43,125 bases of DNA from a bacterium (GCA_037137535.1 JBAXKC010000024.1:1-43125); one strand, 5' to 3'; positions 271-41,970 are shown, numbered from the stretch's first letter. Translations and numbers: made by a program. The notes: generated by a model not told the origin, from the sequence alone.

Positions 271-744
271 TTAACAAGCTATTATTTTACCTACTGCTTT
301 AACAACAATTGCTATTTTCTTATTATTGAATAAATAATTACAGATTGTTTCATTCTTTAGAGAAAAACCTAAAAATGGCTTACCAGTGACATATCCTTGA
401 AATTATTTTAAGCCTGATAAAACTTTTAATATTTTATTTTTGTCTTTTTGAGTTTCTGTATATAAAGATAAGGCATAATCATCCTTAACCTTTGTAATTC
501 CAACTCCATTTAAGTTGAATTTTTCATATAATTCACTAGATGTTGACTCTGCCCCTTGCATTAATATAGAAGGTATAGCCTTTTTAAACTCTCTAACGTC
601 CTTAATTTCTATATTGTTTTCACCCTTAAAATTAACTTTATCAACATTAAGGATATTATTTCTATTTAAAGATGATTTAACTATGTTATTAGACTTTATT
701 TCATTATAGTGATTAAAACTTGAAGCTTTTTGTATATTTAACAT
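271..744 (-). pseudogene. Leader-bearing hypothetical protein, probably interrupted by an in-frame TAA (ORF 403..744, frame open to 271)
   Basis: 113-aa ORF with Asn/Ser-rich leader and VNFKG; after the TAA at 403-405 the frame runs 43 more sense codons (FQGYVTGK...VVKAVGKIIAC) to TAA 271-273. Confidence 0.5.
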
Positions 745-2147
745 TATATTTACCTTTACATAATAGAATCCGCTGGTTGCGGAGCTTGTATAACAATTAT
801 TTAATCCTCAATCTATAGAAGAAGTTTATGAGAAGATGGTTAAGGTTTGGGGCTAAGTTTTTTTTTCATTGATAAATGCTCTTTTGAAAGTGTTTTAGCT
901 TTGTCTGCCGAAGTATTTGTTTTTGATGATTTATTTAGAATATAGAATAATCCACCAATTATTCCGACTATCCCTATAAAAATAGCGGCTGGTTTTGTGT
1001 TATTAAATGATTTAGTATTAATTGAATCAGAGGTTTTCTCTTCTATTACAGGCTTAACTTCTTGTTTTAATATATCTAGTAAGTCAGCAATATCAGTAAT
1101 TTTTACTATGGTTTTATCCGTATCATTCCTCATTATTTGTTTAATTAATTTTTTAAAACTTTTGCAGGTGGCTATACAATTTGAGAAATATTCTGTTTTA
1201 TCTTTATCATTTATTATTGATTTCTTTAAAAATTGCAACCTCTTGATTGTAGAAACATAATTGTCTCTTAAATCAGCAACATTAACATTTTGTTCGTTAT
1301 GAATTAATTTTCTTAATTTGATTTTTAAAAGTTCAGCTTCAAGGACATCATCAGTTGGATTTGATAATACTTTAGCTGATATTTCTTCATGTTTTAGTGC
1401 TTTATTTATAATTTTTTCAACTGAAACTTTTATTCGATTCAAGTCTTTAGGCGTTTTTTCAGGTACACGTTTAGAATCGCCAGCATGCTCTCTTTCATTA
1501 TAAAGGAAACCCCAAAACTCTGATGAATTCATATTGTTTTTTTTAAAATAAAAGTCTTTATTTTGTATATCTATGCTAATTTCATCTAAAGATGTCTTTT
1601 TAAGTTCTCTATAGAAATCAGCTTGTTTTAAATGATGCTCCAAAGATTTTTGCTGTAAATATTCTTTAAAAAGATTTTTTGCCGAAGTTTTATTAGTTTT
1701 TTGAGATAAATCTATAAGATAATCATATAAAGTACGATGCTCAAAGTTTGCTACATTAGAATTATTATAAGCAATGGGATTATCACCTCTGTTATAATTA
1801 AAAAACTTAGCAAATCTATGCACTTTCGTAAAGTTTGACGTTGGTTTTTCTTGTTCAAGATATTCAAAATCAATTAAATTAACTTCATTATCTTTTGTTA
1901 GAAAGTTGCCATCTTGAAGATCATAATGAATCAAGCCTTTACGATCAAGTTCAAAGCATCTTTTTAGCATTTTATTTAATTGATTAACATTTAATGGATT
2001 AGAACTTATATTTGAATGTTTTCCAGGTGCTAATGTAGAAATCAAATATTCTTTGCCATCAAGATTAAATCTGCTAACTAATTTCTGGCTATTTCCAAGA
2101 TCAATATTTTCTATCATCATAAGTTTCTTGGCTTCTTCTCCAAATCC

Positions 2148-3346
2148 CAGGGCTGTTCAATTTAAAAAGTAAAAATGTGTCAAAATTCTACTGAGGAAAA
2201 AAACAACTCGGAGAAATTAAATGTTGCTAGATTTTTTAAATCAAATACCTGATGCTAGAAGAAATCAAGCCAAGCAGTATGAACTTAGATTTATCATTTT
2301 CTTTTCAATACTCGCTATTTTAAGTGGTGCCGCTTCTTATCGAGAAATAGAAAGCTTTTTTGAGATTCATTTTGGAAAATTAAAGAGTAGATTTAAGTTA
2401 AAATGGAAGAAAAGACCTGCATATACAACAATAAGAAATATCTTGCAGGGAATTAATAAAAATGAGCTTGAAAAACATTTAGAAATTACACAAAAAAGAT
2501 TAAAAGTATTGAAACTTCTTTAAATACAAGGGTTATTGCAATAGATGGAAAGATGTTAAGACATAGTTTTGATAATTTCCAAGATAAAAAAGCTTTAAAT
2601 ATACTTTATGCCTTTACTTGCGAAAGCAAACTGGTAATTGCACATATGGACGTCTGTCAAAAAACAAGTGAAATACATGCTGCAACAGAATTAATAATGG
2701 AATTAGCTTTAAATAATTGTATATTTACCCTCGATGCTATGCATTGTCAGATAGAAACTCTTAAAGCAATAAAAAAAACGGAAATGATGCTGTAATACAG
2801 ATAAAAAATAATCAGAAAAACTCTTTTAATCAATTAAAAGAAACAATAGAAAAATCTAAAGCCATATCGGTTCATAAGGATAAGCAAGAGAGAAAAAGAA
2901 ATCGTATTGAATACAGAAATACTGAAGTATTTTTAACTCCTACATCAGTGATGAAAGAAGATAATCTGTTTGAGTATGTCAGATGTTTCGTTAAAGTTAA
3001 TCGTAAAACAGAGATTCTTGATACAAAAGAAAAAACATGGAAAACAAGGCAAGAAGATTCTTATTACGTTTCAACAGTAGCTTATGAAGCAAGTACAATG
3101 GCTAAAATAATTAGAGGTCATTGGAGTATAGAAAATTCAAATAATTATGTAAGAGATGTAGTTTTAAAAGAAGATTATTCAAGTATAAGAATAAATCCTG
3201 GAATAATAAGTCGATTACGTAGCTTTGCTTTGAACATTTTAAGAGCAAATAAAGTAGCTAATATTAAAAGCACTATTTTCAAAAACTCAATGGATTTTAA
3301 TCGACTAATGAGCTTGAAATGGATTTAATAGAATTGAACAGCCCTG
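2148..3346 (+). mobile_element. ISAs1-family insertion sequence, 1199 bp
   Basis: Perfect 15-bp IRs CAGGGCTGTTCAATT (2148-2162, 3332-3346); 10-bp direct repeat CTCCAAATCC (2138-2147, 3347-3356); ISAs1-type transposase inside. Confidence 0.95.
2221..3328 (+). pseudogene. ISAs1-family transposase with two frameshifts
   Basis: Motifs IPDARR, IAIDGK, TLDAMHCQ, RGHWSIEN, RDVVLKED spread over three frames; one added A in each of A5 (2471-2475) and A8 (2771-2778) gives one 369-aa ORF. Confidence 0.9.
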
Positions 3347-3804
3347 CTCCAAATCCGCTTAAGTGATTAATTTTGTCTTTTTTTTCTATTTTTATAACAA
3401 CAGGTTTTAATTCGTTATTAATTGTTATTTCTGACATGTAACAAATTCCATTACAGCCGTGCCCGATTTCTTTCAGTTCTTTATTTTCAATTTTATTTGC
3501 CAGTTGTCTTGCCTGCTTTTCATCAATATGCTTGCCATCACTAACAATAAATTGGGATTGTTTTTGGAAATGATCAGGAATACTATTAGCTTTGAAGGAT
3601 AACTTCTTTATCTGCTTATCTTGTAGTTTATTAGATGATATAGATGTATTTATAATTTTAGTGTTAGCAATTGATAGCACTTTGAAATCCTATTGTGAAA
3701 TACAAAACCATTATGTTTATACAATTAAAGGTAAATAAAATAAACATATTTTTTTAAATTGTAACTGAAAATAAAGGTATTATCTTATTTAATTGTAAAT
3801 AACA

Positions 3805-3839
3805 AAAAGCTAAAGTCTGAAAACTGGCTTTAGCTTTTT
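3805..3839. terminator. Intrinsic terminator downstream of tRNA-Pro
   Basis: AAAAAGCTAAAGTC...GGCTTTAGCTTTTT hairpin with A/T tails. Confidence 0.7.
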
Positions 3840-3849
3840 ATTTAAAGAA

Positions 3850-3923
3850 TCGGAACGACAGGATTTGAACCTGCGGCCCCTACCACCCCAAGGTAGTGCG
3901 CTACCAAGCTGCGCTACGTCCCG
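3850..3923 (-). tRNA. tRNA-Pro(GGG), CCA not encoded
   Basis: CGGGACGTAGCGCAGCTTGGTAGCGC...CTACC-TTGGGGT-GGTAG...GGTTCAAATCC...GTTCCGA cloverleaf. Confidence 0.97.
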
Positions 3924-4018
3924 ATAATAAAAATAGATTATTATAAATAATCTATTTTTGCAATATGATAAAGTAGAAACTTGACCTTGTTATTATTGCT
4001 TTTAATAGGATCGAATTA

Positions 4019-9787: not shown

Positions 9788-10909
9788 ATGGCAACTAATG
9801 GAGTAAATATAGTCCCTAATAGTTTAACTTTCACTCCTCCGACAATTGTGAAAAAACCTGTTGTGTTGCCGCAAACTACTGTAATTCCTCAAAAAAAGCC
9901 TATTACAGAACAGCAAAAACCAATATTGCCTGCTCAACCAAAATTAGATAGCTTTTCTTCAACGCAGATAAAAGAAAATAATTCAAATAAAAATCTTTTT
10001 GCTATGGGCACTGCTGCCCTTGGTGCTGTAATTCTTTGTGGTATAGGTCTTTTAGCTTTTAAAGGTAGAGGAGTAGAAAAAGCTAATCTGATTGAAGAAG
10101 TTCAAGTTCTTTCAGCCGAAGCAACAGAATTAAAAAATGAAATGCTAAAAATATATGATGATGCTGTTAAGTTCCTTAACCTTGAGCATAAACCAGAGAT
10201 TAATTTTGTAAGTGAAATAGGCAGAGAAAAAAATACAGCTGCTGAATATGTACATGCAAGCAGAAAAATCAATCTTAATGTTGAATTCCCACATGATTTA
10301 CATTATGTAATTGTAAAACCTATAAATTCTTCTGCTATTGATGATAAAGTTGAAATTGTTATGTGCGATAAAATTAATGCCAATAAGATAATAAATGATA
10401 AAGCCCGATATATGAAAAAATATGAGATAGACTCTAATTTATTTGAACTAGAAGTGCATAAGTTAAATGAGGAAGAAATTAAGGCATATACAACTCAAAG
10501 TCTTCTCCATGAACTAAGACATGCCAAGCAATCTGAACTAATTCACAAAACACATAATTTGAATGAGATAATTGGGTTAGAGCATGCCTATTCTCAAAGA
10601 TTAGGTGAAAATAGAACTATAGCTCAATTAGAACAAGAATTTAGTACATGGAAACATGTATCTGTTGATAATAATTTATCAATCAAAGATAAAAAACTTG
10701 CAGATAAATTTTTTAATGATTACAGTAAAAATTCTAAGGATAAAGTAACTTATTATAAAGATGAACTTGAACTAGATGCACACCAATTTGAAGCCTCTGA
10801 AAAATGTATTGATTTTATTTTTAAAAAGTTTAATAATTTGTCAGATACTTTTAAAAAAATATTAAAAGTTAATACGGATGAGTTTATTATTAAATATAAT
10901 GAAGCTTAA
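9788..10909 (+). CDS. Membrane-anchored zinc metallopeptidase-like protein
   Basis: Pro/Gln-rich N-terminus, one TM helix, HELRHAKQ (HEXXH), downstream YYKDELELDA. Confidence 0.65.
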   Translation: MATNGVNIVPNSLTFTPPTIVKKPVVLPQTTVIPQKKPITEQQKPILPAQPKLDSFSSTQIKENNSNKNLFAMGTAALGAVILCGIGLLAFKGRGVEKANLIEEVQVLSAEATELKNEMLKIYDDAVKFLNLEHKPEINFVSEIGREKNTAAEYVHASRKINLNVEFPHDLHYVIVKPINSSAIDDKVEIVMCDKINANKIINDKARYMKKYEIDSNLFELEVHKLNEEEIKAYTTQSLLHELRHAKQSELIHKTHNLNEIIGLEHAYSQRLGENRTIAQLEQEFSTWKHVSVDNNLSIKDKKLADKFFNDYSKNSKDKVTYYKDELELDAHQFEASEKCIDFIFKKFNNLSDTFKKILKVNTDEFIIKYNEA

Positions 10910-11675: not shown

Positions 11676-12137
11676 ATGAAAATAATTCAATACAGAAGCA
11701 GAAATATAGGAAAAACTTCATCTGAAGATTACTGTAGTCAAAATATGGATTTATCAATTAAAAATCCATGGATAAGCATAAATCCGAATTATAAAACGAT
11801 AAACACAGATAAAGCTAAAGATAATGCCGATTTAATGTCTAAAGCCTATCAGGACATTATCAAAATAAGAAAAGAAAATCCAGTTCTGATTTATGGCAAA
11901 TTAAAAATGATAAATATTGAAAATAAAAATATTTTTGCTTATACGAGGACTCTTGCCGATAAAAAAATGCTTGTTCTTCTTAATATATCTGAAGAAAAAA
12001 TAATTTTTAATGTTCCTGATGAAATTAATATGAAAGATAGTATAAAATTGCTTTGTAATTTAGAGATTGAAGAGAACGACAATTCTAAAATTACTTTAAA
12101 TCCTTATGAAGCTAGAATCTACGAATTAAACAATTAA
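11676..12137 (+). pseudogene. C-terminal fragment of a GH13 alpha-glucosidase/oligo-1,6-glucosidase
   Basis: NPWISINPNYKTIN, YQDIIKIRKENPVLIYG, IFAYTR, LNPYEARIY; catalytic barrel absent. Confidence 0.75.
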
Positions 12138-15095: not shown

Positions 15096-15096
15096 A

Positions 15097-16202: not shown

Positions 16203-18005
16203 TTATTTAGTTTCTTGTATTTTTATGGGACTAAATGCACGAGTAGTAAGAGCATTTTTGTATTCATCGGTAAAATGAGCATAATCAAATATCATAATAC
16301 CGTTTGCTCCGTTACTTCTTGCAGTAACAAACTGTTTTAGTAAATCTGCTGGAGTTTCAGCATTAAATGGTTGGAATAACCCCGGGTAAATCTTTACATT
16401 TGCAGGCACTTTTTGTTTCATTTCAGACATATAATTGCGTATAAGATCTGTATCTCCACCTAAAACAAGCGGAGTAAAAGCATCTACAAGACCATTTGCC
16501 GCCCAGACATCCCAGTTTTGCAATTTTTTAATGTTTGCCTCGTAAGCATTAGGGAATACCACCGCTGTAACCATTACATTATGCTGTTTAATTACTGCAC
16601 TGGCTTTAGTCACGAATTCTGTAACTTTATTTTGCCTGTAATTTACCCATTTTTCCCAACATTTTTCTGTTCTTGATAGAAGTGCTGGGTCAACTCCATA
16701 CATTTTTTTGAATTCTCTTCTTGCATATTGAGAATAGCCCCATGTTGAGCCGAGATAATTAGGGAAAGTATCGGCTAAACTTGCAGGGTATCTGATATAG
16801 TCAAGATTAATTCCATCAACTTTATAATTTGTGCTTATTTCGTCTATTAATTCTAACAAGAATTTCTGAACACAAGGATTTGCAGGGTCAAGAAAATAGC
16901 TTGAATTTTCCAACTCTGATTTTGACGGGGAATTGTCAAGATAGGCTCTCCTTTGAATATTCGCCCAATCAGGATGGACAGAAATAATATTTTTATATTT
17001 TTCTGTTTTTGGCTCAGAACCGACATTAAAGGTTTCAAACCATACATGTACTTTCAATCCTCTTTTATGAGCTTCCTCTACCCAAACAGCAAGAGGGTCA
17101 AAGCCTTTAAATGCTTGCATTTGATTTGTTACCGAATATTTATCCATTGTTTTACTCGGGAAAATTGTGTATCCATGATAATAAGTTTCAAGAAAAACAT
17201 TTTTTATCCCCGAATTTTTTATTCTTTCAAGGGTATTAGTTATACTTTCAGGAGTTTTTTCAGTTGGTCTTACCCATATACCGTTAAACTCATCAGCAAT
17301 ATATGGTACTGCCCCGTAAAACGATTTATTAGAGGCTTCAATGCTCATTTTAGATAATTTATAAACATTATCATAATTTTGCTGATTAAATTGTTTTTTT
17401 GCCTTGCTAATATCCGTTTTAGCCGTTTTTAGGTAATTCATACTCATAATATAGTTGGGAGTATGTTTTTCATTACTCTTGAATAAGCTATATACTTCTT
17501 TTTTAGCATCATTATATTTTGTTTGAGCTTTGTAGATATAGCTTTCAGGTGTTATATCACTTTCAACTTCATTTTTATCAAAGTTAATTGTTACTTTTGC
17601 CCCTTCAATAAGATTTTTCAAAATCCATTGCTTAGCTTTACCGTTTCCGCTTATTACATAACCGTCTTTTGGTATTGTTGAATCAGCCCCGCTTGTTTTC
17701 ACGACTCTGTTATTTTGTATAATGGCTTCTAATCCATATTCATTAGTGCCTGTTCTTTCGCCGTAAGATCTTGTATAGATTAAAAGCTGGTTTGATCCTC
17801 TAAAACCGGGATAATAAGCTCCTCGTTGGTTTGATTCCGCATTAGGATTCAAGCCGCTTATAGGAAAAGAAGATTTAAAAAATAAAACTGATGCTTTTTC
17901 AGTTGCTTTTGGTGTTTGTTCATTAATAGGCGTTAAATTTTCAGAATAAACAGGATGAGAAAATATTAATAAACTTACAATCGCTGAATATAAAATCTTT
18001 TTCAT
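16203..18005 (-). CDS. Secreted glycoside hydrolase family 10-like (GHL10/YddW) protein
   Basis: Signal peptide; GIWVRP, AHKRGLKVHVW, FLDPANP, DGINLDYIRYP. Confidence 0.88.
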   Translation of the reverse strand: MKKILYSAIVSLLIFSHPVYSENLTPINEQTPKATEKASVLFFKSSFPISGLNPNAESNQRGAYYPGFRGSNQLLIYTRSYGERTGTNEYGLEAIIQNNRVVKTSGADSTIPKDGYVISGNGKAKQWILKNLIEGAKVTINFDKNEVESDITPESYIYKAQTKYNDAKKEVYSLFKSNEKHTPNYIMSMNYLKTAKTDISKAKKQFNQQNYDNVYKLSKMSIEASNKSFYGAVPYIADEFNGIWVRPTEKTPESITNTLERIKNSGIKNVFLETYYHGYTIFPSKTMDKYSVTNQMQAFKGFDPLAVWVEEAHKRGLKVHVWFETFNVGSEPKTEKYKNIISVHPDWANIQRRAYLDNSPSKSELENSSYFLDPANPCVQKFLLELIDEISTNYKVDGINLDYIRYPASLADTFPNYLGSTWGYSQYARREFKKMYGVDPALLSRTEKCWEKWVNYRQNKVTEFVTKASAVIKQHNVMVTAVVFPNAYEANIKKLQNWDVWAANGLVDAFTPLVLGGDTDLIRNYMSEMKQKVPANVKIYPGLFQPFNAETPADLLKQFVTARSNGANGIMIFDYAHFTDEYKNALTTRAFSPIKIQETK

Positions 18006-27374: not shown

Positions 27375-28728
27375 ATGAATTCCTTTCAAAACAGTTGTAA
27401 CACCAGCCGCTCTGACCAAAATATTGTTTTAATCCTTGCAAATGAATAAATTCGACACTATCAGCACCTATAAAATCAGCAATCTGTTGTTCTTTTGAAT
27501 ATTTTTCAGCTATAAGCTGTTCTTTATCAGGAATATCCACTCCCCATCCGCAAGTATTAACTATCATAGGAGAAGCAATTTTAAAATGGATTTCTTTAGC
27601 TCCTGCTTCTCTTATCATTTTCACAAGAATTTTTGAAGTTGTTCCCCTTACCAGAGAATCATCAACAAGTATTATTCTTTGATTTTCAATGACGGATTTT
27701 ATCGGAATAAGTTTTTGACGTACGCTTTTTTCTCTGTCTTTCTGTCTGGGCTGAATAAAAGTCCTGCCCACCCAATGATTTCTCAATAAACCTATTTGTA
27801 AAGGTATTCCAGATTCTTGAGAATAACCTATTGATGAGGCTAAACCGGAATCCATAACAGGAACGACAATATCTGCATTAGTCTTATTTTGTTTTGCTAA
27901 GGTTTTTCCAAGTTCTACCCTTGAGAGATAAACGTTTCTTCCAAATACGTTTGAATCAGGGCGAGAAAAATAAATATGTTCAAAAACGCATTGTTTTGTT
28001 TCAATTTTTTCGTGAAATCTTTCGATTCTATACCCGTTTTTGCTTACTTCAACAGCTTGCCCTGCCTGTATTTCAAAAACTTTATTAATTGTCAGATTTT
28101 GAAAAGCACTATCTTCAGAAGCTAAAAATATACCTTCCTTTGCTTCACATAAGAAAAGAGGTCTGTATCCAAGCGGATCTCTATATGCAAAGACTCTTTC
28201 TGGCAACGCGACAAGAATTGACCAAGCTCCACCACTGAAATTTTGCTGTAAAATTTTGCCGACTTCTACTAAGTCCCACGTTGAAGGAGCAGAACAAAGC
28301 TCTTTAATTACTTTTTTGATAATCATTTCGGTATCAGAGGAAGTTGTAAAAACTTCTCCGTTAAGCTCTAATTCTTTCATCATGCTAACGGCTTTACCGA
28401 TGTTTCCGTTATGAGAAATAGCAACAGTTTCATTTAGAAAATTCAACAAATATGGTTGTGCATGAAGTTTATCCGAATTTCCTTGAGTAGAATACCTTAC
28501 ATGCCCTATACCAAAATATCCCGATATTTCATCAATCAGTTCACCTCTAAGAGCAGTTGAAACAAGCCCCTGCTCTTTGTATAGAGAAAGGACGGAATCT
28601 CCACAGCAAACACCTGCGCTTTCCTGACCTCTATGCTGAAGCATGAAAAGACCTTCTTTTATATATGGAGCAATCGGATTATTATAAGCGTATCCGCCAA
28701 ATATACCGCACTCTTCACCTATTTTCAT
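27364..28728 (-). CDS. purF: Amidophosphoribosyltransferase (propeptide, Fe-S type)
   Basis: EECGIFG, LQHRGQESAG, GHVRYST, VDDSLVRGTT, CYNC. Confidence 0.97.
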   Translation of the reverse strand: MKIGEECGIFGGYAYNNPIAPYIKEGLFMLQHRGQESAGVCCGDSVLSLYKEQGLVSTALRGELIDEISGYFGIGHVRYSTQGNSDKLHAQPYLLNFLNETVAISHNGNIGKAVSMMKELELNGEVFTTSSDTEMIIKKVIKELCSAPSTWDLVEVGKILQQNFSGGAWSILVALPERVFAYRDPLGYRPLFLCEAKEGIFLASEDSAFQNLTINKVFEIQAGQAVEVSKNGYRIERFHEKIETKQCVFEHIYFSRPDSNVFGRNVYLSRVELGKTLAKQNKTNADIVVPVMDSGLASSIGYSQESGIPLQIGLLRNHWVGRTFIQPRQKDREKSVRQKLIPIKSVIENQRIILVDDSLVRGTTSKILVKMIREAGAKEIHFKIASPMIVNTCGWGVDIPDKEQLIAEKYSKEQQIADFIGADSVEFIHLQGLKQYFGQSGWCYNCFERNSCGL

Positions 28729-30890
28729 CTTTCCATCTCCGATTGAATTAAAAGATTAAAACTATCTATAAGTTCGTCTATATTAAAATTAAAACCGTTG
28801 AATTTAATTAATGACCCTTTGCAAAGACCTATTTTTTTATAAGGAATATTACTTGAGCAAAGTAAGCTTTCAATTTCAGTATCTTTTCGAGTAGAAACTA
28901 AATATCTTCCTGTTATTTCTCCGAACATTGAAGCTAATAAGTCATTAGAATGTGGGAATTCTCCTTCGAATCCAATATTTTCCGTTGCTAAAGATTTAAA
29001 TAATGCTCCAAAAATACCAAAATAAGAAACACTTCTACATCCGCCAAGCAGTTCTTTTTTATGGGAATTATCAATAAATTCTCGTAATTTGAATTCTAAT
29101 TCAACGTCAGTTTTATCAACTTTTCCACCAATAAAATCAAACAATATTTTTTGATATAACGAACCGCCTAATGAGGAATTTTCATCAAGCTGTTTGCCTA
29201 TGACATAAACTGATTCACCTGATTTAAAGTGGCTTCGTATTATATTTTTATAATTATTAATATATCCGATAGCTCCAATTGTAGCTGTTGGGTAGACTCT
29301 ATCGGTTTCTGTTTCATTATAAAAAGAAACATTGCCCGATGCTACAGGGATATTTGTTTCCTTACAGGCTTGAGCCAAGCCGTCAATTGATTTTACAAAC
29401 TGATAAGCTGCTTCGTTTTTTTCGGGATTTCCATAATTCATGCAGTCAGTAATCCCTAATGGATTAAACCCATCAGCTGTGAGATTTCTAAATGATTTCC
29501 AAGCTGCGTTTCTTGTTCCTTCATAAGGATCTAAAAAAGCTTGTAAAGGTAAAGAATCTATTGTTACTCCAATAACTCCGCCTTCTTCATAAGCCCATAT
29601 TCCTGAAGAGCTTGAAACCCCAGGTTTTAAAACTGTTCTTGTTCCTACCATATGGTCATATTTTGAATAAATCCACTCTTTTGAAACAAAATTAGGATTT
29701 GCTACAATTTTATAAATTGCTTTTTTAATATCATATTCGGTATTGAGTTTTTTATTTGCGTATTCATCAATATAAAGCGGCTTTTCTTCATTTAAATCGT
29801 AGAAAATACCTTCTGTAAGTAATTTAGGAGGAACGCATGCCTGTAATTTACTGTTAAAAAATAATCTATATTCTTGTTCTTCAATTGTTTCACCGATTAC
29901 AGAGGAAGGAATCCCATATTTATTACAAATATCAAGAACTTCTTGTACTCCGCTATCCTCAACAACAAATAACATACGCTCTTGCGACTCTGAAAGCATA
30001 ATTTCCCAAGGTTGCATTTCATCTTCACGAACATGCACTCTATCAAGATAAAGATTTATTCCGCAATTGCCTTTGTCTGCCATTTCAGCGCTGGAAGATA
30101 ATAAACCTGCCGCTCCTAAGTCCTGACAGGCTAAAACGTTTTTTATCTTTACTATTTCAAGTGTGGCCTCAATTACCAGTTTTTTCATAAAAGGATCACC
30201 GATTTGAACAGAGGGTCTATCTTCACCAGACCTGCCTGAAAGCTCTTTTGATGCGAAAGAAGCTCCATGAATACCATCTCTTCCTGTTTCAGCACCCATT
30301 AGAATAACTTTATTATTAGGTATAGCTTTTGCTGATTGGATTTTATCTTCTTCGACAATCCCAACCGCCATAACATTTACCAGAGGATTAGCTTTATAGT
30401 TATCATCAAAAAGAACTTCTCCTGCTACTGTTGGAACGCCAATAGCATTTCCATATCCTGAAATACCGCTTACAACGCCTTCAAAGATATGCTTAGAATA
30501 ATTATCATTAAGTGGGCCGAATTTTAAAGAATCTAATAACGCAATCGGTCTTGCTCCTATTGCTAAGATATCTCTGACAATGCCTCCAATACCAGTTGCT
30601 GCACCTTGATAAGGTTCTACAGCCGAGGGATGATTATGTGATTCAGCCTTAAAAACTACCACATGCTTTCCAATCTTAATTCCGCCTGCATTTTCTCCAG
30701 CTGAAACAGCTCCACCTAAAGGTAAACGGCTTAAATACTTTTTAGAATGTTTATATCCGCAATGCTCAGACCACATTGCAGAAAAAAGATATGTTTCTAA
30801 TTCATTAGGATAACGTCCGAGTCTTTCGACTATTTCTTTAAACTCATTGTCTTTAATATTTAAAGCTTTATATAATTCAATTGTTTTCAT
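28725..30890 (-). CDS. purL: FGAM synthase subunit PurL (small type)
   Basis: MWSEHCGYK, ESHNHPSAVEPYQGAATG, QDLGAAGL, SESQERM, GNVSFYN. Confidence 0.97.
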   Translation of the reverse strand: MKTIELYKALNIKDNEFKEIVERLGRYPNELETYLFSAMWSEHCGYKHSKKYLSRLPLGGAVSAGENAGGIKIGKHVVVFKAESHNHPSAVEPYQGAATGIGGIVRDILAIGARPIALLDSLKFGPLNDNYSKHIFEGVVSGISGYGNAIGVPTVAGEVLFDDNYKANPLVNVMAVGIVEEDKIQSAKAIPNNKVILMGAETGRDGIHGASFASKELSGRSGEDRPSVQIGDPFMKKLVIEATLEIVKIKNVLACQDLGAAGLLSSSAEMADKGNCGINLYLDRVHVREDEMQPWEIMLSESQERMLFVVEDSGVQEVLDICNKYGIPSSVIGETIEEQEYRLFFNSKLQACVPPKLLTEGIFYDLNEEKPLYIDEYANKKLNTEYDIKKAIYKIVANPNFVSKEWIYSKYDHMVGTRTVLKPGVSSSSGIWAYEEGGVIGVTIDSLPLQAFLDPYEGTRNAAWKSFRNLTADGFNPLGITDCMNYGNPEKNEAAYQFVKSIDGLAQACKETNIPVASGNVSFYNETETDRVYPTATIGAIGYINNYKNIIRSHFKSGESVYVIGKQLDENSSLGGSLYQKILFDFIGGKVDKTDVELEFKLREFIDNSHKKELLGGCRSVSYFGIFGALFKSLATENIGFEGEFPHSNDLLASMFGEITGRYLVSTRKDTEIESLLCSSNIPYKKIGLCKGSLIKFNGFNFNIDELIDSFNLLIQSEMER

Positions 30891-35829: not shown

Positions 35830-37443
35830 TTACGCTTTGAATATTAATATATTCCCTTTTGCCTTTAATTCTTGTCCTTTTTTTGCGTAATTATCTTTTA
35901 ACGATAGAAACTCTTGTTTAGCATCTTTCATATATACAACATTAGTATCAGGATCAACTAAGGAGCGGTACTCACTAATTTTTTTATCATTAAATTTATA
36001 CTCACTATTTGCAATATCTCTTCCAGTTTGCAGATAAGCTAAAAATGTACCTATATCACAAAATTTATGAGGTATTTTATGAACATTAAATTTCAGTTCT
36101 CGACCATCTTCAGCTAGTATTTCACCTTTTTTACATTTATCAATTAATGTAGGTTGTAAAGTTAAGGAAAAGTCAGATTTGCCATCTTCTGCTTTAAATG
36201 AATCAGGATTTTTGATTATTTCTTTTTTAATCCATTTAAGCATATCAGGAGATATTATATACATACCTGTGCAAGCAAGATATTCATCCTCTCCAATTTT
36301 TGCAAAATCCGCTTTAGGGCTATATTTGCCTGGTTTTTCCAAGAAAGATTCAACCTCTTCCTCTTCATTGATTTTTACAATACCATGCTTATCAAGTCTG
36401 TCTCCATGTATGGACATACCTAAAACCATTATACCTGATTGTTTCTTATCAAAATCTTTTACAAACTTTTTTAGATCAACATCCCAAACTTCGTCAGCAG
36501 AACAAATTAATAATGGTCTGTTTGTAGGAATTTCTCCACTTAATAATCCTTTAAAAACACAGCTTAAATTACCCATTGGAGTAGCTTCTGAAAAATTAAC
36601 CGCCTTTTTAGTACCACTTAATATACCTGCCTCATTTAAATTATCAAGTACATTATAAACTAACGGTTCTCCATTTGGAGATGGAGTCACAGGCTTAGGA
36701 AGCCCCCCTTCAGCAAGTGCTTCTGCTAAACAGCTTAATCTTGATCCTTCTCCAGCCGCAGGAATAAATACATTCATATCTTTTAAATAACTTGTATCAC
36801 TTTCATTAATTTTATTGGTATTTACATAACTATTTATAGTGTTCTCTACTAGATGCCCTTGAGTTGAAACGGCATTACTTGAATAAAGTTGACCTTTAAA
36901 AGATATTTTTTCTTTTTTCTGATTTTCTGCCGGCATCTCTACTGACAGTTTATCTCCAATTTTAAAGGAAGAATCACTTGTCATTAAAGCATTAATTCCA
37001 TTTTCAAGAGTTACTTGAGCAGAGAGCCCAGACTTTCCGGTTGTAAACTTTACTTTTATATCCATATCGCTAGACTTAGTTGCTTTTAAAATAATATTTC
37101 CATTTTTGTCTTTAATTTCAACTTTTTCTAAATTATCATTATTTTTTTTAGTATATTCATAAAGTTCTGTAATTTTAGCTCTTGCAGGGATATCAAAGTT
37201 TTTACGATTTGTATTAAAAACATCATTTATAACTGTATTATGTTTTTGTTCATCAATATCAGAATTAGCTTTGAAACTAATATTAAACAATTTCGCTGAT
37301 TTAATAGCATTTGACTGTTGCATTGATAATGATTTTAAATCAGATTGTCTTTCGGAAATATCTGAAGGTGTTTTTGCTTTTTCTGCATTCTTATTTAATT
37401 CTACATTTCCTTTAAACGTAATATTTAAACGATTTATATTCAT
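35830..37443 (-). CDS. Sugar-phosphate nucleotidyltransferase domain protein with ~220-aa N-terminal extension
   Basis: IPAAGEGSRL...LPKP, HGIV, FLEKP, TGMYI, DIGT; leader motifs ITFKG, ISFKA, ISFKG. Confidence 0.85.
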   Translation of the reverse strand: MNINRLNITFKGNVELNKNAEKAKTPSDISERQSDLKSLSMQQSNAIKSAKLFNISFKANSDIDEQKHNTVINDVFNTNRKNFDIPARAKITELYEYTKKNNDNLEKVEIKDKNGNIILKATKSSDMDIKVKFTTGKSGLSAQVTLENGINALMTSDSSFKIGDKLSVEMPAENQKKEKISFKGQLYSSNAVSTQGHLVENTINSYVNTNKINESDTSYLKDMNVFIPAAGEGSRLSCLAEALAEGGLPKPVTPSPNGEPLVYNVLDNLNEAGILSGTKKAVNFSEATPMGNLSCVFKGLLSGEIPTNRPLLICSADEVWDVDLKKFVKDFDKKQSGIMVLGMSIHGDRLDKHGIVKINEEEEVESFLEKPGKYSPKADFAKIGEDEYLACTGMYIISPDMLKWIKKEIIKNPDSFKAEDGKSDFSLTLQPTLIDKCKKGEILAEDGRELKFNVHKIPHKFCDIGTFLAYLQTGRDIANSEYKFNDKKISEYRSLVDPDTNVVYMKDAKQEFLSLKDNYAKKGQELKAKGNILIFKA

Positions 37444-37465: not shown

Positions 37466-38260
37466 TTATTTTTTCAATAATAAGTCTGTATAATTTTTAA
37501 TTGAAGGGTATTTTTCAGCTAAAAACTCTAAATGTGCAGGATATTTTATAAAATTATGTCCTGAATTAATCATATTATCTAAAGCCTTTTCTGGAGTTTC
37601 TCCTAGCTTTTCTACTTCAAGTAAAAACATCATAGTCCCTGTTCTATCTTTTCCATGATAACAATGACCGTACATTTTACCATTTAACTTTTCATATATA
37701 GCAAAAAACTCGTTAACTTGCTCTTTACTAGGAGGTTTTTTCTCATTTAAAGGAATATGATGATAAGTCATTCCTTTTTCTTTTGCACATTGTATTAATT
37801 TTTCTGGTGGAGCTTCATGATAAAAACTTACAATATCAGTTACACCTTTTTGTTTTAGTCGTTTAATATCATATTCACAAGTAACTAAACCACCTCTTAA
37901 TACATTCTCACTAGTTGTCCTGTAATTTTTTAATTTTGTTTCTACAAAATCAAAAATCCCTTTTACTACCGGATTATTGAGTAATTTACTTTCTTTAATC
38001 TGACCGATTGTGTTTACATCTCTTTTTACATAATATCTGCGTATATTTATAGGACTATATGGAAATTCAAGATTTAATTTAGCAAGACCTGATTTTATTG
38101 ATTTAATATTTAAATTTGGCTTTCCAGAAAATGCAGTAATATTTTGACTATTAGTATTACTTTGATTTACCGGTGACATTGAATAATCTCTCGTTATCTG
38201 TCTGTTATTTTGAGTTTTAGTTAGTTTAATTGCTTGATTATAATTATTAACATTTATCAT
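37466..38260 (-). CDS. Dual-specificity/tyrosine phosphatase with N-terminal extension
   Basis: HCYHGKDRTG (CX5R), LRGG, HHIPL. Confidence 0.88.
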   Translation of the reverse strand: MINVNNYNQAIKLTKTQNNRQITRDYSMSPVNQSNTNSQNITAFSGKPNLNIKSIKSGLAKLNLEFPYSPINIRRYYVKRDVNTIGQIKESKLLNNPVVKGIFDFVETKLKNYRTTSENVLRGGLVTCEYDIKRLKQKGVTDIVSFYHEAPPEKLIQCAKEKGMTYHHIPLNEKKPPSKEQVNEFFAIYEKLNGKMYGHCYHGKDRTGTMMFLLEVEKLGETPEKALDNMINSGHNFIKYPAHLEFLAEKYPSIKNYTDLLLKK

Positions 38261-38274
38261 TCTATTTTATTCCT

Positions 38275-39336
38275 TTAATAATCTATGGTTGATGATTTAA
38301 CAATATTTATTTCTTCTTCAGGAGTTATTTTAACTAGACTTGATCTTTCTATAATTCCGCCTTTTCCTTTTTCAGGTTCAATACCAATTCCGTGACTGCT
38401 TATAAGAATGGGCTTAGATGGCTTAGTCGGATTATTGTCTATAATAGTGTAATTTTTTATTGAACCATTATCTTTTTTTAGAATATTATTAATTAATATT
38501 TCACTATTTTTTAATTCGTCCATTACTTTTTCAGCTCTTGTAAATCTACCGTTTTCAATTCTGCCCATAAGCCTTTTCATTGCAGTATGTGGGTCGATTC
38601 GGACATAAATAAGCTCAATATCATAACCTTTATTACTTAATTTATCGATAATATTTGTTAAATCAGCTTTATTACAGCCTGTTGGACAACAAATATTTGT
38701 TCCTTTTTCTGATTCTTCGTCAATTATTTCATTTAATAAATCGCTACCTTTTGAGCCTAGTAAGGCACTGCCATATCTTTTAGCTTTTTCTGATATTACA
38801 ATATCTTCCGGTAAATTTGCTTTAGCTACATCTTGATCAATTAACAGACAATTAGTTTTTTCAATAATTTCTTCTACTATTGTGGATTTACCAGCAGTTG
38901 AACAACCAGTAATAACATAGGCTTTATGCTCATGCTTTGGATTCTTTAAATCTAATGATAACTCTTCCATTTTTTTATAAATTATTTGATCTTTGAAATG
39001 CAGTACTTTTTCTTTTAATATATCCTTTTGTAATTCAAATAAAAGCTCTGCTTCTCCTCTTTCCTCTGTAGTGATATTACTTAATATCTCTAAATGATCT
39101 GAAATTGTTTTTTTATTCTCATGAGTTAAATATTTATTATGGTCATATTGATCATGAGACTTAAACTGAATTAGATTTTGAGAAATTAAAGCATTTCTTA
39201 ACTGTAATGAAGAAACGTTACTGGGTTGAAAATGAGGTTTTTCTTCACACCTCTGTGTTGTATTATTAACTGTTGATTTTGTTGTTAAAAGTTTCATTTT
39301 ATTTGAAGACGAAATAACATGATTTAACGAAATCAT
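38275..39336 (-). CDS. Zeta-toxin-family P-loop kinase with N-terminal extension
   Basis: GCSTAGKST Walker A, IDQDVAK, GYDIELIYV...AMKRLMGR. Confidence 0.78.
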   Translation of the reverse strand: MISLNHVISSSNKMKLLTTKSTVNNTTQRCEEKPHFQPSNVSSLQLRNALISQNLIQFKSHDQYDHNKYLTHENKKTISDHLEILSNITTEERGEAELLFELQKDILKEKVLHFKDQIIYKKMEELSLDLKNPKHEHKAYVITGCSTAGKSTIVEEIIEKTNCLLIDQDVAKANLPEDIVISEKAKRYGSALLGSKGSDLLNEIIDEESEKGTNICCPTGCNKADLTNIIDKLSNKGYDIELIYVRIDPHTAMKRLMGRIENGRFTRAEKVMDELKNSEILINNILKKDNGSIKNYTIIDNNPTKPSKPILISSHGIGIEPEKGKGGIIERSSLVKITPEEEINIVKSSTIDY

Positions 39337-39460: not shown

Positions 39461-40747
39461 TTATTTTATAAATTCTTCTGTAGCTTTATCAGCAGTAATA
39501 GATAAATTTGTGCATAAAACACCACCAATAATTCTAGCCATAGCTTTTTTAGATGACTCATTGTCAAGAATTATAGGTTTATTTCCATATTTTAATTCTG
39601 TATATTCTTCATCTGAGTTTAATGATATTTTTTTATAAAAAGAATTATCGTTTTGTTCTGTAAATTTATTATCTATATTTCCCTTAGTAACTGATATAGA
39701 ATTATTCTCCATTTTAAAATAAATAGGATTTCCAATATGCACTGCACCATGAGCAACTGCGCCTTTAGTCTTTTCGCAACATATTCCGACTGGAATAACT
39801 TTTACTCTTGGCAGCTTTGTTAATGATTTAATTATGACTTTACTGATACCATAATTAAATTTTTCTTCATTTGTTAAATTAAGAAAACGTCTACCACCTT
39901 CAGGTGCAATAAAAATATGATTACCATTAGTAAAATTATCAATAACTGTACCCATTTTCAAGGTGTTATTTTCAGAAGAAGGATACGCTTTAGATACTAT
40001 TGGAACAAAGCCACCTTTATCATACATTTTCTTTAATTTTTCAGGAAAGACGTCATATTCTCTATTGGTTACAATACATTGAGGCTTGGGAAAATTAATA
40101 CCATTTTCTGAATTGTCATTATTTGCTTTATATTCACCGTATAAATGGTTGATAAATCCGTAAAACATTGCCAAATCACAGGGAGGATCAGGATGATTAA
40201 AGATAAAAACAGCAGGTTCTTTTGAATTAACTAACTCTTTAAATTGAGTTGACTCAATATTGATTTTCATATCAATACCTTTACTGAATAGCTTATAAGG
40301 TTTTGATACTTCTTCTAATTCAATAGATTCTAATGCTTTATTGAATTTTTTAGCAATATCAGGACTTGCTTTAATACGACCTTCTTGAACATTATTTATT
40401 ACTGTTTCTTCCATTTTTGCAGTTTCACTATCAAGTGATTTAGGTATTGTTAAAACTTGATTATTAATAAAATTATCGCTATTTGAAATATTATTAAGCT
40501 CAGGTTGAACAATACTTGAATTAGGCAAAATATTATCTCTCAGGTGTTTTATTAAACCTTCATTAGATTTTGTTCTCATACTAATAAATTCATCATTTTG
40601 ATTTTGTCTTGCATAGCTAGAAGCTGTTTTTCCAAAATAAGCTAAAGGATTATCATCAAGAGTTCCTTCAGTTCTTATATGTCCTTGAAAATTTATTATG
40701 CTTTTATTTGGATAAATAGAATTTTTATCCAACAAACTAATATTCAT
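39461..40747 (-). CDS. Lysophospholipid acyltransferase (PlsC-like) domain protein with N-terminal extension
   Basis: FIFNHPDPPCD, IFIAPEGGR, VIPVGI, VHIGNPI. Confidence 0.75.
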   Translation of the reverse strand: MNISLLDKNSIYPNKSIINFQGHIRTEGTLDDNPLAYFGKTASSYARQNQNDEFISMRTKSNEGLIKHLRDNILPNSSIVQPELNNISNSDNFINNQVLTIPKSLDSETAKMEETVINNVQEGRIKASPDIAKKFNKALESIELEEVSKPYKLFSKGIDMKINIESTQFKELVNSKEPAVFIFNHPDPPCDLAMFYGFINHLYGEYKANNDNSENGINFPKPQCIVTNREYDVFPEKLKKMYDKGGFVPIVSKAYPSSENNTLKMGTVIDNFTNGNHIFIAPEGGRRFLNLTNEEKFNYGISKVIIKSLTKLPRVKVIPVGICCEKTKGAVAHGAVHIGNPIYFKMENNSISVTKGNIDNKFTEQNDNSFYKKISLNSDEEYTELKYGNKPIILDNESSKKAMARIIGGVLCTNLSITADKATEEFIK

Positions 40748-40933
40748 TTTTACATCCTTATTACTAAACGAAATTTATATACAAATATAAATACAAAGAT
40801 AAATTTGAATTGCTCAAATAAAAGATTTTTTTAACATAATTTAATAAAAAAGTTTTAGTTAGATAAATTATGTAGCAACTATGCTAGTAAAATTTATTTA
40901 CACAACTATCTTAAGTAAATTACAGTAAAATAA

Positions 40934-40962
40934 TAAAAGAGCAGATACAATTGATCGGCTCT
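40934..40962 (-). terminator. Intrinsic terminator
   Basis: AGAGCCGAT...ATCTGCTCT-TTT on the minus strand after the 167-aa gene. Confidence 0.55.
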
Positions 40963-41010
40963 CTGTAAACTTAACAGATAAAGAAACTTTTTCTTGTTTT
41001 ATAATATGAT

Positions 41011-41514
41011 TTACTTCTTAAAAACTTTACCTGCTTTTGCTTTGTTTTGCTCAATTAATTCTTGAGCAATTCTTAAAGTTTGTTCATCCATTCTTTTTGA
41101 TCCAATAATTGTTGTTAAGGCTGTTACATTTTGAAAAGCAATTGCTGCTGCTCCTGCAACTCCATGCACAACTGTAGCAAGAAGAGGGCCTGTTACAGCC
41201 GCAAGTTCAGCTCCTGTTTTAGTTCCTTCAAGAGTATGTTTTAGGATAGTTTTTTTATTTTTTACTTGAGTTCCAATTGAGCTTAAAAAACCTACTAGTC
41301 CACCGGTTACAGCTCCAGCAGGTATTTCATATAATGCTGTATCACGAAGTGCTTGCGCAACAGGGCTGGTAATAAGCAGTTGTTCAACTTTAGGCGCAGC
41401 ATCAGGAAGAACTACTTTTATTGCATTTGCTGTTATTTTTGGCGTAGTACAAGCAAGCATTGCTGTTGCACTTGCTGCCATAAAGGTGTTTTTAGCTACT
41501 GTAAAATTATTCAT
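41011..41514 (-). CDS. Ala/Gly-rich hypothetical membrane protein
   Basis: AAGGA RBS; glycine-zipper-like GAVTGGLVG and hydrophobic helices. Confidence 0.75.
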   Translation of the reverse strand: MNNFTVAKNTFMAASATAMLACTTPKITANAIKVVLPDAAPKVEQLLITSPVAQALRDTALYEIPAGAVTGGLVGFLSSIGTQVKNKKTILKHTLEGTKTGAELAAVTGPLLATVVHGVAGAAAIAFQNVTALTTIIGSKRMDEQTLRIAQELIEQNKAKAGKVFKK

Positions 41515-41656
41515 TTTTTGTTCCTTTTATATCCTTTTATTGTTATAAAACATGTAAAAACTATTCATGCCTTAGTTTAAGTAAATTAAAATATTTTGTT
41601 ACATTTTTATTAATATATTAATAGTTTCTCTAGTTTGAACAAAAAAAAGGCACAAA

Positions 41657-41680
41657 AAAAGAAGGATTTAACCTTCTTTT
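41657..41680. terminator. Intrinsic terminator
   Basis: AAAAGAAGG-atttaa-CCTTCTTTT downstream of the 88-aa gene. Confidence 0.65.
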
Positions 41681-41703
41681 AGGTATTATATTTATTTGAT
41701 TTA

Positions 41704-41970
41704 TTATCCAATAAGGTTTAAACCTGCTTCTATCGGTTGTTCTGTTGTTGTTTCATTCATCGCATTGAACATTGCAGATGCTCTATCTTTAATAAAACTG
41801 AAGAAGGACTGACCATCAACTAAGTCGTTTTTTCTTACATCTTCTGTTTCTTTTAAAAACATATCGCTATTTGCTTTACTTGAAAAAGCTAACATTTCTA
41901 CTGATGGTCTTTGATTTCCTTTAAAAGCAATTGGTTGTGTATTGAAGTTATTTATTTTATTTATATTCAT
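41704..41970 (-). CDS. Small leader-bearing hypothetical protein (88 aa)
   Basis: GAGG RBS; MNINKI...IAFKG; terminator downstream. Confidence 0.8.
   Translation of the reverse strand: MNINKINNFNTQPIAFKGNQRPSVEMLAFSSKANSDMFLKETEDVRKNDLVDGQSFFSFIKDRASAMFNAMNETTTEQPIEAGLNLIG

Follow-up and report, generated by a model that had tools for sequence, protein, structure and literature searches.

Non-flagellar proteins can leave the cell via the flagellar export apparatus, as the Cia and Fed proteins of Campylobacter and YplA of Yersinia do; to our knowledge, such substrates have no conserved sequence motif in common. Other effector repertoires carry N-terminal markers, such as the MIX and FIX motifs of type VI effectors and the leaders of PVC/eCIS cargo. 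Early flagellar substrates have a two-part signal, described for Salmonella FlgD as 2-SIAV-5 together with 36-FLTLL-40, a gate recognition motif docking on FlhB-C (PMC8983047, eLife 2022); the same source gives a distance from the N-terminal signal to the gate motif of at least 19 residues, with an optimum of about 24 (PMC8983047). For Gastranaerophilales, "partial flagellar gene sets" have been interpreted as incomplete flagella or non-motility (PMC5877343), and two flhA genes are listed in one genome (PMC3787301).

The DNA analysed here, referred to as the window, is the whole stretch of 43,125 nucleotides from an uncultured gut-type Melainabacterium (GCA_037137535.1 JBAXKC010000024.1:1-43125). 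A sequence-only reading had pointed out a Phe-centred motif in the leaders of unrelated proteins of the window, and all nine motif instances quoted there are present, in seven ORFs of the minus strand. The first belongs to an orphan of 113 aa with a polar leader (403..744; VNFKG, aa 37-41, nt 622-636), which is picked by the classifier described below and matched no Pfam family. The second, LSFKA (aa 27-31, nt 3588-3602), lies in the N-terminal piece (3297..3680, 127 aa) of a gene split in two by a decayed ISAs1-like insertion element on the plus strand (2148..3346); this element has perfect 15-nt terminal inverted repeats (2148-2162 and 3332-3346), a flanking direct repeat and a transposase broken up into three ORFs with DDE_Tnp_1_assoc and DDE_Tnp_1 matches. 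The C-terminal piece of the gene (840..2120, minus strand, 426 aa) adjoins the element, contains the motifs HYDLQDGNF and LIDFEY and ends in a hydrophobic segment; neither piece matched a Pfam family, and it is from motifs spotted by eye that the split gene appears kinase-like. Three further instances, ITFKG, ISFKA and ISFKG at aa 8, 55 and 180 (nt 37408-37422, 37267-37281 and 36892-36906), fall in a nucleotidyltransferase (35830..37443, 537 aa; NTP_transferase match, E 2.2e-14). The other tagged proteins are a dual-specificity phosphatase of the PTP-NADK / DSP-PTPase families (37466..38260, 264 aa) with the variant motif ITAFSG (aa 41-46, nt 38123-38140), a Zeta-toxin-like P-loop kinase (38275..39336, 353 aa; Zeta_toxin match, E 5.9e-16) with IQFKS (aa 56-60, nt 39157-39171), a protein of 428 aa (39461..40747) with INFQG (aa 18-22, nt 40682-40696) and a weak acyltransferase match (E 0.0098, under the Pfam cut-off), and a protein of 88 aa (41704..41970), one of four paralogues, with IAFKG (aa 14-18, nt 41917-41931). 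For the last, the AlphaFold 2 model has low confidence (pLDDT 57.6) and shows residues 1-23 as coil.

The marked proteins were said to be non-homologous and devoid of Sec signals, and they are; no Sec-type core was found on inspection of the seven, and many of the marked proteins are enzymes of kinds often met with in effectors. The housekeeping genes in the window were said to have no such leader, which agrees with what was found: four of them hold the pentapeptide (18021-18821, 16203-18005, 28725-30890 and 9788-10909), inside or beside folded or membrane parts and with no polar leader. Also as stated, the window contains no genes for a secretion machine.

As read from the sequences, the tag is a short linear motif consisting of a hydrophobic residue, Ser/Ala/Asn, Phe, Lys (or Gln/Arg/Thr/Ser) and Gly/Ala, and it sits in a predicted disordered leader with many Asn, Ser, Thr and Lys residues, often opening with M-(I/L)-N. 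The genome-wide counts rest on a crude call of 2,614 ORFs, in which the start is the first ATG/GTG/TTG. The FKG tripeptide shows no overall excess in the genome (191 seen, 191 expected); counted in bins of 20 residues, the motif reaches a density of 0.23-0.34 per 1,000 residues in the first three and stays at or below 0.14 in all later ones. The claim that the motif is commoner at N-termini than composition predicts was confirmed by 500 within-leader shuffles, in which [ILV][SANTG]FK[GAS] was matched 9.37±2.93 times in residues 2-61 (maximum 18), compared with 44 matches seen; ten control patterns, permuted or substituted, gave 4-16 matches. A broad classifier, [ILVM][SANTGP]F[KRQTSN][GA] within 90 residues with a polar stretch required ahead of it, picks 73 of the 2,614 ORFs (about 2.8%), whereas the reversed pattern picks 5. 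The motif starts between residues 3 and 86 of these 73 ORFs (median 31; before residue 20 in 24 of them), and copies are also found between domains and near the C-terminus of some proteins. This loose position, together with the internal and C-terminal copies, is an observation that counts against type III export. D-x-F, said to follow often, does so in 8/73 cases vs 5.2±2.1 in shuffles, a count reached by 129 of 1,000 shuffles, and this part of the earlier description is not supported. Upstream of the tagged genes, no common promoter word was revealed (best 7-mer, P 1.7e-4 over 137 tests).

The motif is conserved while its flanks drift. In a nine-sequence alignment of the 41704..41970 family, F16, G18 and L84 are the sole invariant columns, of which F16 and G18 belong to the motif, and the leaders upstream of it vary from 2 to about 40 residues across the nine homologues. 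A homologue with 43% identity to the nucleotidyltransferase has all three of its motif sites, and a paralogue has two of them; homologues in two further families retain two copies. Paralogue C4_66152 of the 39461..40747 protein bears LSFSA, and the phosphatase has one paralogue with a Sec-type signal and one with INFTG/VAFTA leaders. Codon use within the motif is that of the genome (GGA 0.39 vs 0.37; AAA 0.85 vs 0.86), and an in-frame start codon within five codons after the motif is found in 4/73 cases vs 14.5% at random positions; thus, the motif is neither a word in the DNA nor a ribosome-binding site that was misread, and selection acts on it at the amino-acid level.

It is very improbable that the motif has no function and results from AT-rich composition, over-extended ORF starts or one leader copied by recombination. 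The genome does have 31% G+C, with leaders rich in Asn, Ile and Lys, and the ORF starts are simply the first possible ones, but the shuffles and ten permuted controls stay below the observed count, the reversed pattern is rare, start codons seldom follow the motif, diverged homologues keep the motif unchanged although their leaders differ, and genomes of similar G+C content, G020 (34%) and G015 (33%), do not have the tag. The shuffles, the reversed control, the invariant F and G columns and the codon and start-codon tests largely refute a motif without function.

The tag marks an accessory, patchily distributed and clustered set of genes without Sec signals. Outside the window, 43 of the 75 regex-positive proteins have no Pfam family, and the tagged proteins in which a domain was recognised are additional copies of housekeeping enzymes (guanylate kinase, FtsH, Ski2-like helicase and LOG). 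An N-terminal hydrophobic segment, defined by a 15-residue window with a Kyte-Doolittle mean of at least 1.8 within the first 40 residues, is present in 1/73 tagged ORFs vs 505/2,541 others, a difference that the polar filter makes partly circular. Three families, PPIC rotamase, 5'-nucleotidase and DSP phosphatase, include a sister paralogue in which a Sec-type signal takes the place of the tag. The cargo includes ATP-needing domains (kinases, an AAA+ protease, a helicase); these would idle in the periplasm or medium, which speaks against export.

Two explanations without export bear on these features. The position of the three conserved copies in the nucleotidyltransferase, at boundaries between segments, and the small last residue of the motif (Gly/Ala/Ser), as at many cleavage sites, would suit a processing or turnover signal, at which a dedicated protease removes leaders, cuts multi-domain precursors or targets proteins for degradation; this is quite improbable, since in many proteins the motif begins at residue 3-8, where cutting would remove almost nothing, and a candidate protease beside tagged genes was not found. 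A cytoplasmic recruitment tag, which would dock enzymes on an internal hub (a scaffold such as a ring formed by the stand-alone FlhA-C protein) and so concentrate or regulate them inside the cell, is rather unlikely. Such docking would be in keeping with ATP- or nucleotide-dependent cargo (guanylate kinase, AAA+/M41 protease, helicase, Zeta-like kinase, nucleotidyltransferase), with motif copies between domains and near C-termini, like those of recruitment peptides, and with the stand-alone FlhA-C protein itself, which is conserved in 41/41 genomes of the order and encoded outside any type III operon. However, Sec export of the untagged sister paralogues in three families suggests a role outside the cytoplasm, export and flagellar loci have more tagged neighbours than expected, and no compartment shell gene was found in the genome (BMC shell, PF00936: 0 matches at E<=0.01; the genome is rated 100% complete). 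An encapsulation peptide of a microcompartment was rejected on the same absence.

The search for flagellar/T3SS genes elsewhere in the genome revealed two full flagellar-type type III export sets, both outside the window, with tagged genes 3-4 times commoner than expected beside such loci. Counting from a list of flagellar/T3SS loci drawn up by hand by the analyst, 7 of the 62 genes within 3 kb are tagged vs 1.72 expected (P 0.0014), and 8 of the 88 within 5 kb vs 2.44 expected (P 0.0026); for the second set alone, the enrichment is weak (2/15 tagged vs 0.42 expected, P 0.063). Of the two, flagellin-less relatives have only the second set, which includes a rod but lacks a full-length FliG. In a cell with two membranes, an apparatus with a rod alone offers no evident exit, which weighs against type III export. 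The same pentapeptide occurs in N-terminal parts of true type III substrates of this genome, namely the hook protein FlgE (VGFKG), a rod protein of the second set (VAFKA) and a FlgC-like protein (VSFNG, VTFNG). None of the tagged proteins matched Flg_bb_rod (PF00460) at E<=0.1; the eight matches of the genome are all rod, hook or hook-associated genes.

Among other machines, type IV secretion was rejected, as the VirB4-family ATPase (PF03135) has 0 matches in the genome, and so was a contractile injection (PVC/eCIS) or type VI route: VipB/TssC was not found in the genome, and Phage_sheath_1 is sporadic (4/61 genomes of the class) and missing from the tag-positive G030. Tad, type IV pilus and type II-like clusters are present in the genome, and relatives without the tag possess type III sets, both of which would agree with an export tag served by an ABC/type I exporter, Tad/type IV filament systems, vesicles or another machine. 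Such a route is unlikely, as the neighbourhood enrichment points to flagellar loci and we know of no polar N-terminal tag without a hydrophobic core used by the ABC/type I, Tad/type IV filament or vesicle routes.

The tag is restricted to some lineages of Vampirovibrionia. In relatives sampled at 400 kb (215 kb for G015) and scored as motif vs reversed control, the counts are 7 vs 0 of 403 ORFs for G030 (f2), 3 vs 0 of 340 for G001 (f3; 13 vs 2 unfiltered), 1 vs 0 of 357 for G004 (f6), 0 vs 0 of 322 for G017 (f10), 1 vs 1 of 366 for G020 (f8) and 1 vs 0 of 168 for G015 (f9), compared with 73 vs 5 of 2,614 in the genome itself. Family f2 has no flagellin (0/10) and no FliG_C (0/10), yet it retains the second set and the tag. 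The second set stands alone in f2, f7 and f8. Among the lineages sampled, the stand-alone FlhA-C protein and the C13_4327 N-domain, an extra domain on a FliG-like protein, occur together only in the three tag-positive ones; this phyletic match comprises seven non-independent genomes. The tag is missing from relatives that possess flagella and both export sets; its presence is therefore not explained by a type III apparatus alone. The second set is also found in f6, f10 and probably f8, with no tag in their samples, which is a point against type III export.

The tag looks like an undescribed sorting or export tag. We tentatively suggest that it is an address for Sec-independent sorting, carried in the leaders of about 70 proteins that are otherwise unrelated, with flagellar-type type III export as the most likely route (probability roughly 0.42). 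The best candidate exporter would be the second set, and recognition might be performed by lineage-specific cytoplasmic parts, the stand-alone FlhA-C-domain protein and the helical N-domain of the FliG-like protein of the second set, with Phe as the putative anchor residue of a short strand. A broader proposal, rather doubtful at present, is that gut and related Melainabacteria run a flagellum-derived exporter with a rod and without rotor, hook or filament, which would handle about 70 substrates per genome, enzymes and orphan proteins rather than structural parts, each addressed by a conserved Phe-Lys-Gly strand motif. That motif would be read by a lineage-specific cytoplasmic receptor, for which the DUF4177-like/FlhA-C protein and the helical domain of a truncated FliG are the alternatives. 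If true, a flagellum would have become a secretion machine a second time, independently of the injectisome, and for the first time with a sequence-readable signal.

Compared with the known parts of the early flagellar signal, the tag resembles a signal that is unchaperoned, disordered, N-terminal and free of a Sec core, with a short Phe-centred element; small hydrophobic residues right after Met occur in tagged leaders too (I/L at position 2, 0.32 vs 0.17 in other ORFs; Ile at position 3, 0.23 vs 0.11), and FlgE and the second-set rod proteins hold its pentapeptide. Unlike that signal, the Phe element here is a conserved pentapeptide ending in Gly, lies 3 to 86 residues from the N-terminus, out of step with the spacing rule, and occurs on about 70 non-flagellar proteins, repeatedly within one protein in some cases. 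The second element, F-x-x-x-hydrophobic (F...[ILVMF]) within 35 residues after the motif, shows no excess (19/73 vs 18.5±3.1 in shuffles); the departure from the spacing rule and from the second element tells against type III export. Of the lineage-specific secretion signal proposed earlier, a real, selected and lineage-restricted motif stands, but it does not fit the well-mapped flagellar signal because its position varies, the second element is missing and D-x-F is not significant. The Gastranaerophilales partial sets likewise contain fliF, fliH, flhA, fliI, fliPQR, flhB and rod genes without flagellin, whereas here there is a separate, conserved paralogous system beside a full flagellum; the passages of PMC5877343 and PMC3787301 on these genes draw no link to a tagged protein repertoire. 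A double-glycine (C39 peptidase) leader has some 15-25 residues before a Gly-Gly/Ala/Ser cleavage motif and goes with a C39 peptidase exporter; the tag differs from it in that Lys, not Gly, precedes its final small residue. Cia, Fed and YplA are similar in being enzymes and virulence-type proteins without Sec signals, there dependent on the flagellar type III gate, but the candidate apparatus here is without hook, filament and rotor, and export is putative. The tag differs in sequence from the MIX/FIX motifs and PVC/eCIS leaders, and here TssC was not found and the sheath gene is sporadic; the likeness is that many toxin or enzyme domains with no relation to each other share a short N-terminal signature, which, as in those systems, lets a repertoire be listed from sequence alone.

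The genome that carries the window (G000; 2.95 Mb in 81 contigs, G+C 31%, the window being contig C24) yielded 2,614 ORFs, called via a codon-usage score, and all nine motif instances quoted in the sequence-only reading were found in the window translations (9/9). The motif is a functional tag, a polar N-terminal leader with a pentapeptide of the hydrophobic-small/polar-Phe-Lys-Gly type, in its broad form [ILVM][SANTGP]F[KRQTSN][GA] within 90 residues of the start. The FKG tripeptide overall is as frequent as expected (191 observed vs 191 expected), and the pentapeptide is concentrated within the first 60 residues of ORFs. The pattern [ILV][SANTG]FK[GAS] was counted 44 times in residues 2-61 vs 9.4 ± 2.9 (maximum 18) in 500 shuffles, which bears out an N-terminal enrichment beyond composition; ten permuted or substituted control patterns gave 4-16 occurrences. 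The broad motif with a polar upstream stretch marks 73 ORFs of this genome, vs five for the reversed pattern (the motif read backwards in the same pipeline). The D-x-F that had been noticed after the motif proved not to be enriched among the tagged ORFs, and no enrichment of an F-x-x-x-hydrophobic second element was found in the tagged leaders. Codon choice within the motif matches that of the genome, and the motif is not followed by start codons; the tag is therefore a protein-level feature, and a DNA word or a ribosome-binding site read in frame is ruled out by these controls. No promoter word common to the 58 tagged genes with an intergenic region stood out, the number of tests being allowed for, and the regions upstream of the six flagellin genes showed no sigma-28-like box.

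Of the mechanisms considered for the tag, Sec-independent sorting of the proteins that carry it has the strongest backing, probably via a rotor-less second flagellar-type export set (set 2) or an accessory receptor tied to that set; we put the probability of this reading at roughly 0.4. The literature searched, with PMC3787301 and PMC5877343 among it, gave no account of a motif of this kind.

A comparison of paralogues places the motif core in Phe and the final Gly/Ala, the fourth position being loose (K, Q, R, T, S, N). The family of the window nucleotidyltransferase (35830-37443, reverse strand, 537 aa; ITFKG, ISFKA, ISFKG) is patchy, being present in 4/41 genomes of the order, and a word-based search with this protein returned one homologue. 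All three sites are kept in a homologue 43% identical to the window copy (INFKG, ISFRG, VSFTG), two are kept in the own-genome paralogue, and in homologues from two other families of the order, two sites persist behind a conserved A-x-G-M-R-S-A-V-L-x-K-S-L stretch. A profile search among 1.84 billion representatives with the family of the 88-aa window protein (41704-41970, reverse strand; IAFKG) revealed eight proteins. The six short matches all contain hydrophobic-x-F-K/Q-G (6/6), their upstream leaders having 2 to ~40 residues and differing in composition; the long matches P0003 and P0009 are without the motif and look spurious. F16, G18 and L84 are the sole invariant columns of the nine-sequence alignment of this family, and the AF2 model, which is weak (pLDDT 57.6), presents the leader as coil. 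That the motif is a processing site is one of the main alternatives to sorting through set 2.

A Pfam family is absent in 43 of the 75 regex-positive proteins outside the window. Domains among the remaining ones include two nucleotidyltransferases, a DSP phosphatase, a Zeta-like kinase, a guanylate kinase, a LOG-like protein, soluble FtsH-like AAA+/M41, PPIC rotamase, 5'-nucleotidases, amylase-like, a Ski2-like helicase and a pentapeptide-repeat protein. Each of these domain-bearing types has an untagged housekeeping paralogue, and the rotamase, 5'-nucleotidase and DSP phosphatase also have a sister paralogue with a Sec-type signal. Adjacent pairs of tagged genes are more numerous than in shuffles (9 vs 2.0 ± 1.4). 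By its profile, the tagged set is an accessory, fast-moving repertoire. Another main alternative is a cytoplasmic recruitment tag; in that case too, with no protein leaving the cytoplasm, the presence of one five-residue motif in almost 3% of the proteome would indicate an unknown sorting or control system.

Several tagged loci have features of their own. In the soluble FtsH-like proteins (AAA and M41 peptidase; L017:4656-6389, that is C1 110540-112276; C1:263779-266403; C64:2173-3807), the membrane anchor is lost and the tag stands in its place; one of these genes immediately precedes fliJ-fliK-flgD-flgE. Five tandem paralogues of 111-115 aa (C25:29118-30881) all open with MQLTT...YQK...QVAFSGNIG, in which the tag appears in a Ser variant. 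Two paralogous proteins of ~625 aa with tag-like NTFTG and KAFTG leaders and hydrophobic segments (C15:21174-25063) adjoin genes of the flgK/flgL type and an ORF whose N-terminus, judged by eye, is FliS-like. In the window, both ends are sites of tagged genes and the middle is housekeeping (dprA, topA, shikimate and aromatic amino-acid genes, a purine operon, folate genes and ETF). At one end, a tagged kinase-like gene is split into a 127-aa N-terminal (3297-3680) and a 426-aa C-terminal piece (840-2120) by a decayed ISAs1-like element (2148-3346) with 15-nt perfect inverted repeats and a transposase in three ORFs. The 153-aa ORF at 11676-12137, which matches just the last ~50 positions of an alpha-amylase catalytic domain and the C-terminal domain, is probably a gene remnant. 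The window topoisomerase I shares 69-73% identity with its counterparts in MAGs labelled Melainabacteria or Candidatus Caenarcanum, and homologues of another protein of the genome are labelled Gastranaerophilales or Melainabacteria.

The sequence-only reading had advised a look for flagellar, T3SS and T4SS genes; the genome does contain two flagellar-type type III sets, and VirB4 was not found in it. TssC and a BMC shell gene were not found there either, and for want of these marker genes, a microcompartment and routes through type IV or type VI secretion were set aside for the tag. The genome has one sheath gene, and sheath genes occur in 4/61 genomes of the class and not in the tag-positive G030; since the gene is so sporadic, a contractile injection system was rejected as the reader of the tag. 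The three secretins of the genome are parts of Tad, type IV pilus and type II-like clusters.

Set 1 encodes a complete flagellum, with flgBC-fliEFGHI on C36, fliPQR-flhBA on C3, fliJK-flgDE on C1, rings, hook-associated genes and FlgM/N on C15, and six flagellins. Set 2 is paralogous to it and spread over three contigs. C13 carries fliI, flhA, fliH, the gene of a 313-aa protein, fliF, fliE, a lytic transglycosylase gene and four rod-type genes, namely flgC, flgB and two FlgF/G-like genes (L070:63-10372); C7 carries a FliN-like gene, fliO, fliP, fliQ and fliR (L031:3420-7461; C7 21484-25525), and C21 carries flhB beside a sigma factor gene (L071:11279-12349). FliG is encoded by a single copy, a second full-length fliG being absent, and set 2 looks like a conserved rod-only apparatus, not a decaying flagellum. 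A 314-aa TPR protein is encoded between set-2 fliR and a tagged nucleotidyltransferase (L031:1728-2669; C7 19789-20733); in injectisome systems, TPR proteins act as chaperones.

The fliG slot of set 2 is occupied by the gene of the all-helical 313-aa protein, C13_4327 (L070:4330-5268; C13 4327-5268). Its fold model (pLDDT 84.9) has a helical bundle in residues 1-165, which turned up solely in the own genome and families f2 and f3, and a Foldseek search with the model revealed no match at E ≤ 0.001. Comparison of residues 169-313 with FliG chains (VIA-align) gave Z 6.0-6.8, weak values of the size that noise produces among helical proteins. Because of the gene position, a FliG_N match in one homologue and these weak Z rows, the protein is read as FliG-like, its C-terminal half resembling the FliG N/M domains only weakly. 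Four other proteins of the genome correspond to the FlhA C-terminal domain (FHIPEP 321-655) without the FlhA membrane part (L222:182-1672 on C34; C2:107681-109057; C27:25204-26991; C60:3193-4608), and no description of such stand-alone FlhA-C proteins was found in the literature searched. The C27 protein joins a bundle of the C13_4327 N-domain type to an FlhA-C domain with a membrane anchor. The C34-type protein, encoded outside any type III operon, has a conserved N-terminal domain of ~60 residues, which presumably resembles DUF4177, and is present in 41/41 genomes of the order with 35-52% identity.

FlhA-family genes occur in 51/61 genomes of the class. Flagellin and FliG_C were found together in the own genome, f3, f5, f6, f10 and f11, and neither was found in f2 (0/10), f8 (0/9), f4 and f9; f7 has no flagellin (0/9) and one weak FliG_C match, in G049. 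FlhA is thus present without flagellin or FliG_C in f2 (10/10), f8 (9/9) and, except for the G049 match, f7 (9/9), so these three families retain one FlhA, with neither filament nor rotor. The f2 FlhA adjoins a homologue of C13_4327, and just two rod-type proteins each were found in three f2 genomes. Published work describes 'partial' flagellar sets in the order, taken as motility loss (PMC5877343), and an early paper lists two flhA genes for one genome (PMC3787301).

In 400-kb samples of relatives, passed through the own-genome ORF pipeline, counts of motif vs reversed control were 7 vs 0 (403 ORFs) in G030 (f2, same order), 3 vs 0, or 13 vs 2 unfiltered (340 ORFs), in G001 (f3), 1 vs 0 (357 ORFs) in G004 (f6), 0 vs 0 (322 ORFs) in G017 (f10), 1 vs 1 (366 ORFs) in G020 (f8) and 1 vs 0 (168 ORFs in 215 kb) in G015 (f9). 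Composition is not the cause of the tag, since the tag-negative G020 and G015 have a G+C of 33-34%. The tag-positive lineages have stand-alone FlhA-C (four proteins in the own genome; f2 10/10; f3 2/2 genomes) and the C13_4327 N-domain (f2 10/10, f3 2/2), f6 showing weak C-terminal matches only (3/8). The tag occurs together with both features, a pattern over seven related genomes that does not constitute a statistical test; FlhA-C-only matches also occur in two f7 genomes, outside the tag sampling. A degenerate DNA pattern for [IVM][SA]FKG was dropped as a measure of the tag in the 61 genomes; its excess over the reversed pattern in f6 was out-of-frame or non-coding, and 0/30 loci (G004, G041) were leaders.

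Tagged genes are found near flagellar/T3SS loci more often than expected, within 3 kb (7/62 vs 1.72), 5 kb (8/88 vs 2.44) and 10 kb (10/164 vs 4.56). For set 2 alone, the excess of tagged neighbours is weak (2/15 vs 0.42 expected; P 0.063), and ORFs around 34 FlhA-C-type and nucleotidyltransferase loci gave numbers too few to judge (motif 2/145, reversed 1/145). Some lineages with both export sets lack the tag, and a different export route is a further main alternative to set 2.

As for likeness to flagellar substrates, the pentapeptide occurs in the N-terminal parts of FlgE and two set-2 rod proteins, and the tagged leaders had no match to Flg_bb_rod. Ile/Leu are enriched at positions 2-3 of the tagged leaders, which brings to mind the hydrophobic signal at the N-terminus of early flagellar substrates (PMC8983047). 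The leaders lack that signal's second element and its spacing, and this, like the missing Flg_bb_rod match and the tagless lineages with both export sets, counts against sorting through set 2. Should the tag be an export signal, 'partial flagellar gene sets', so far taken as decay, would gain a purpose. To our knowledge, type III substrate signals are not conserved, and substrates have never been listable from sequence alone; with such a signal, the secreted or delivered proteins of a whole uncultured gut and environmental lineage would become listable from sequence, and set 2 would represent a second natural case of a flagellum turned exporter.
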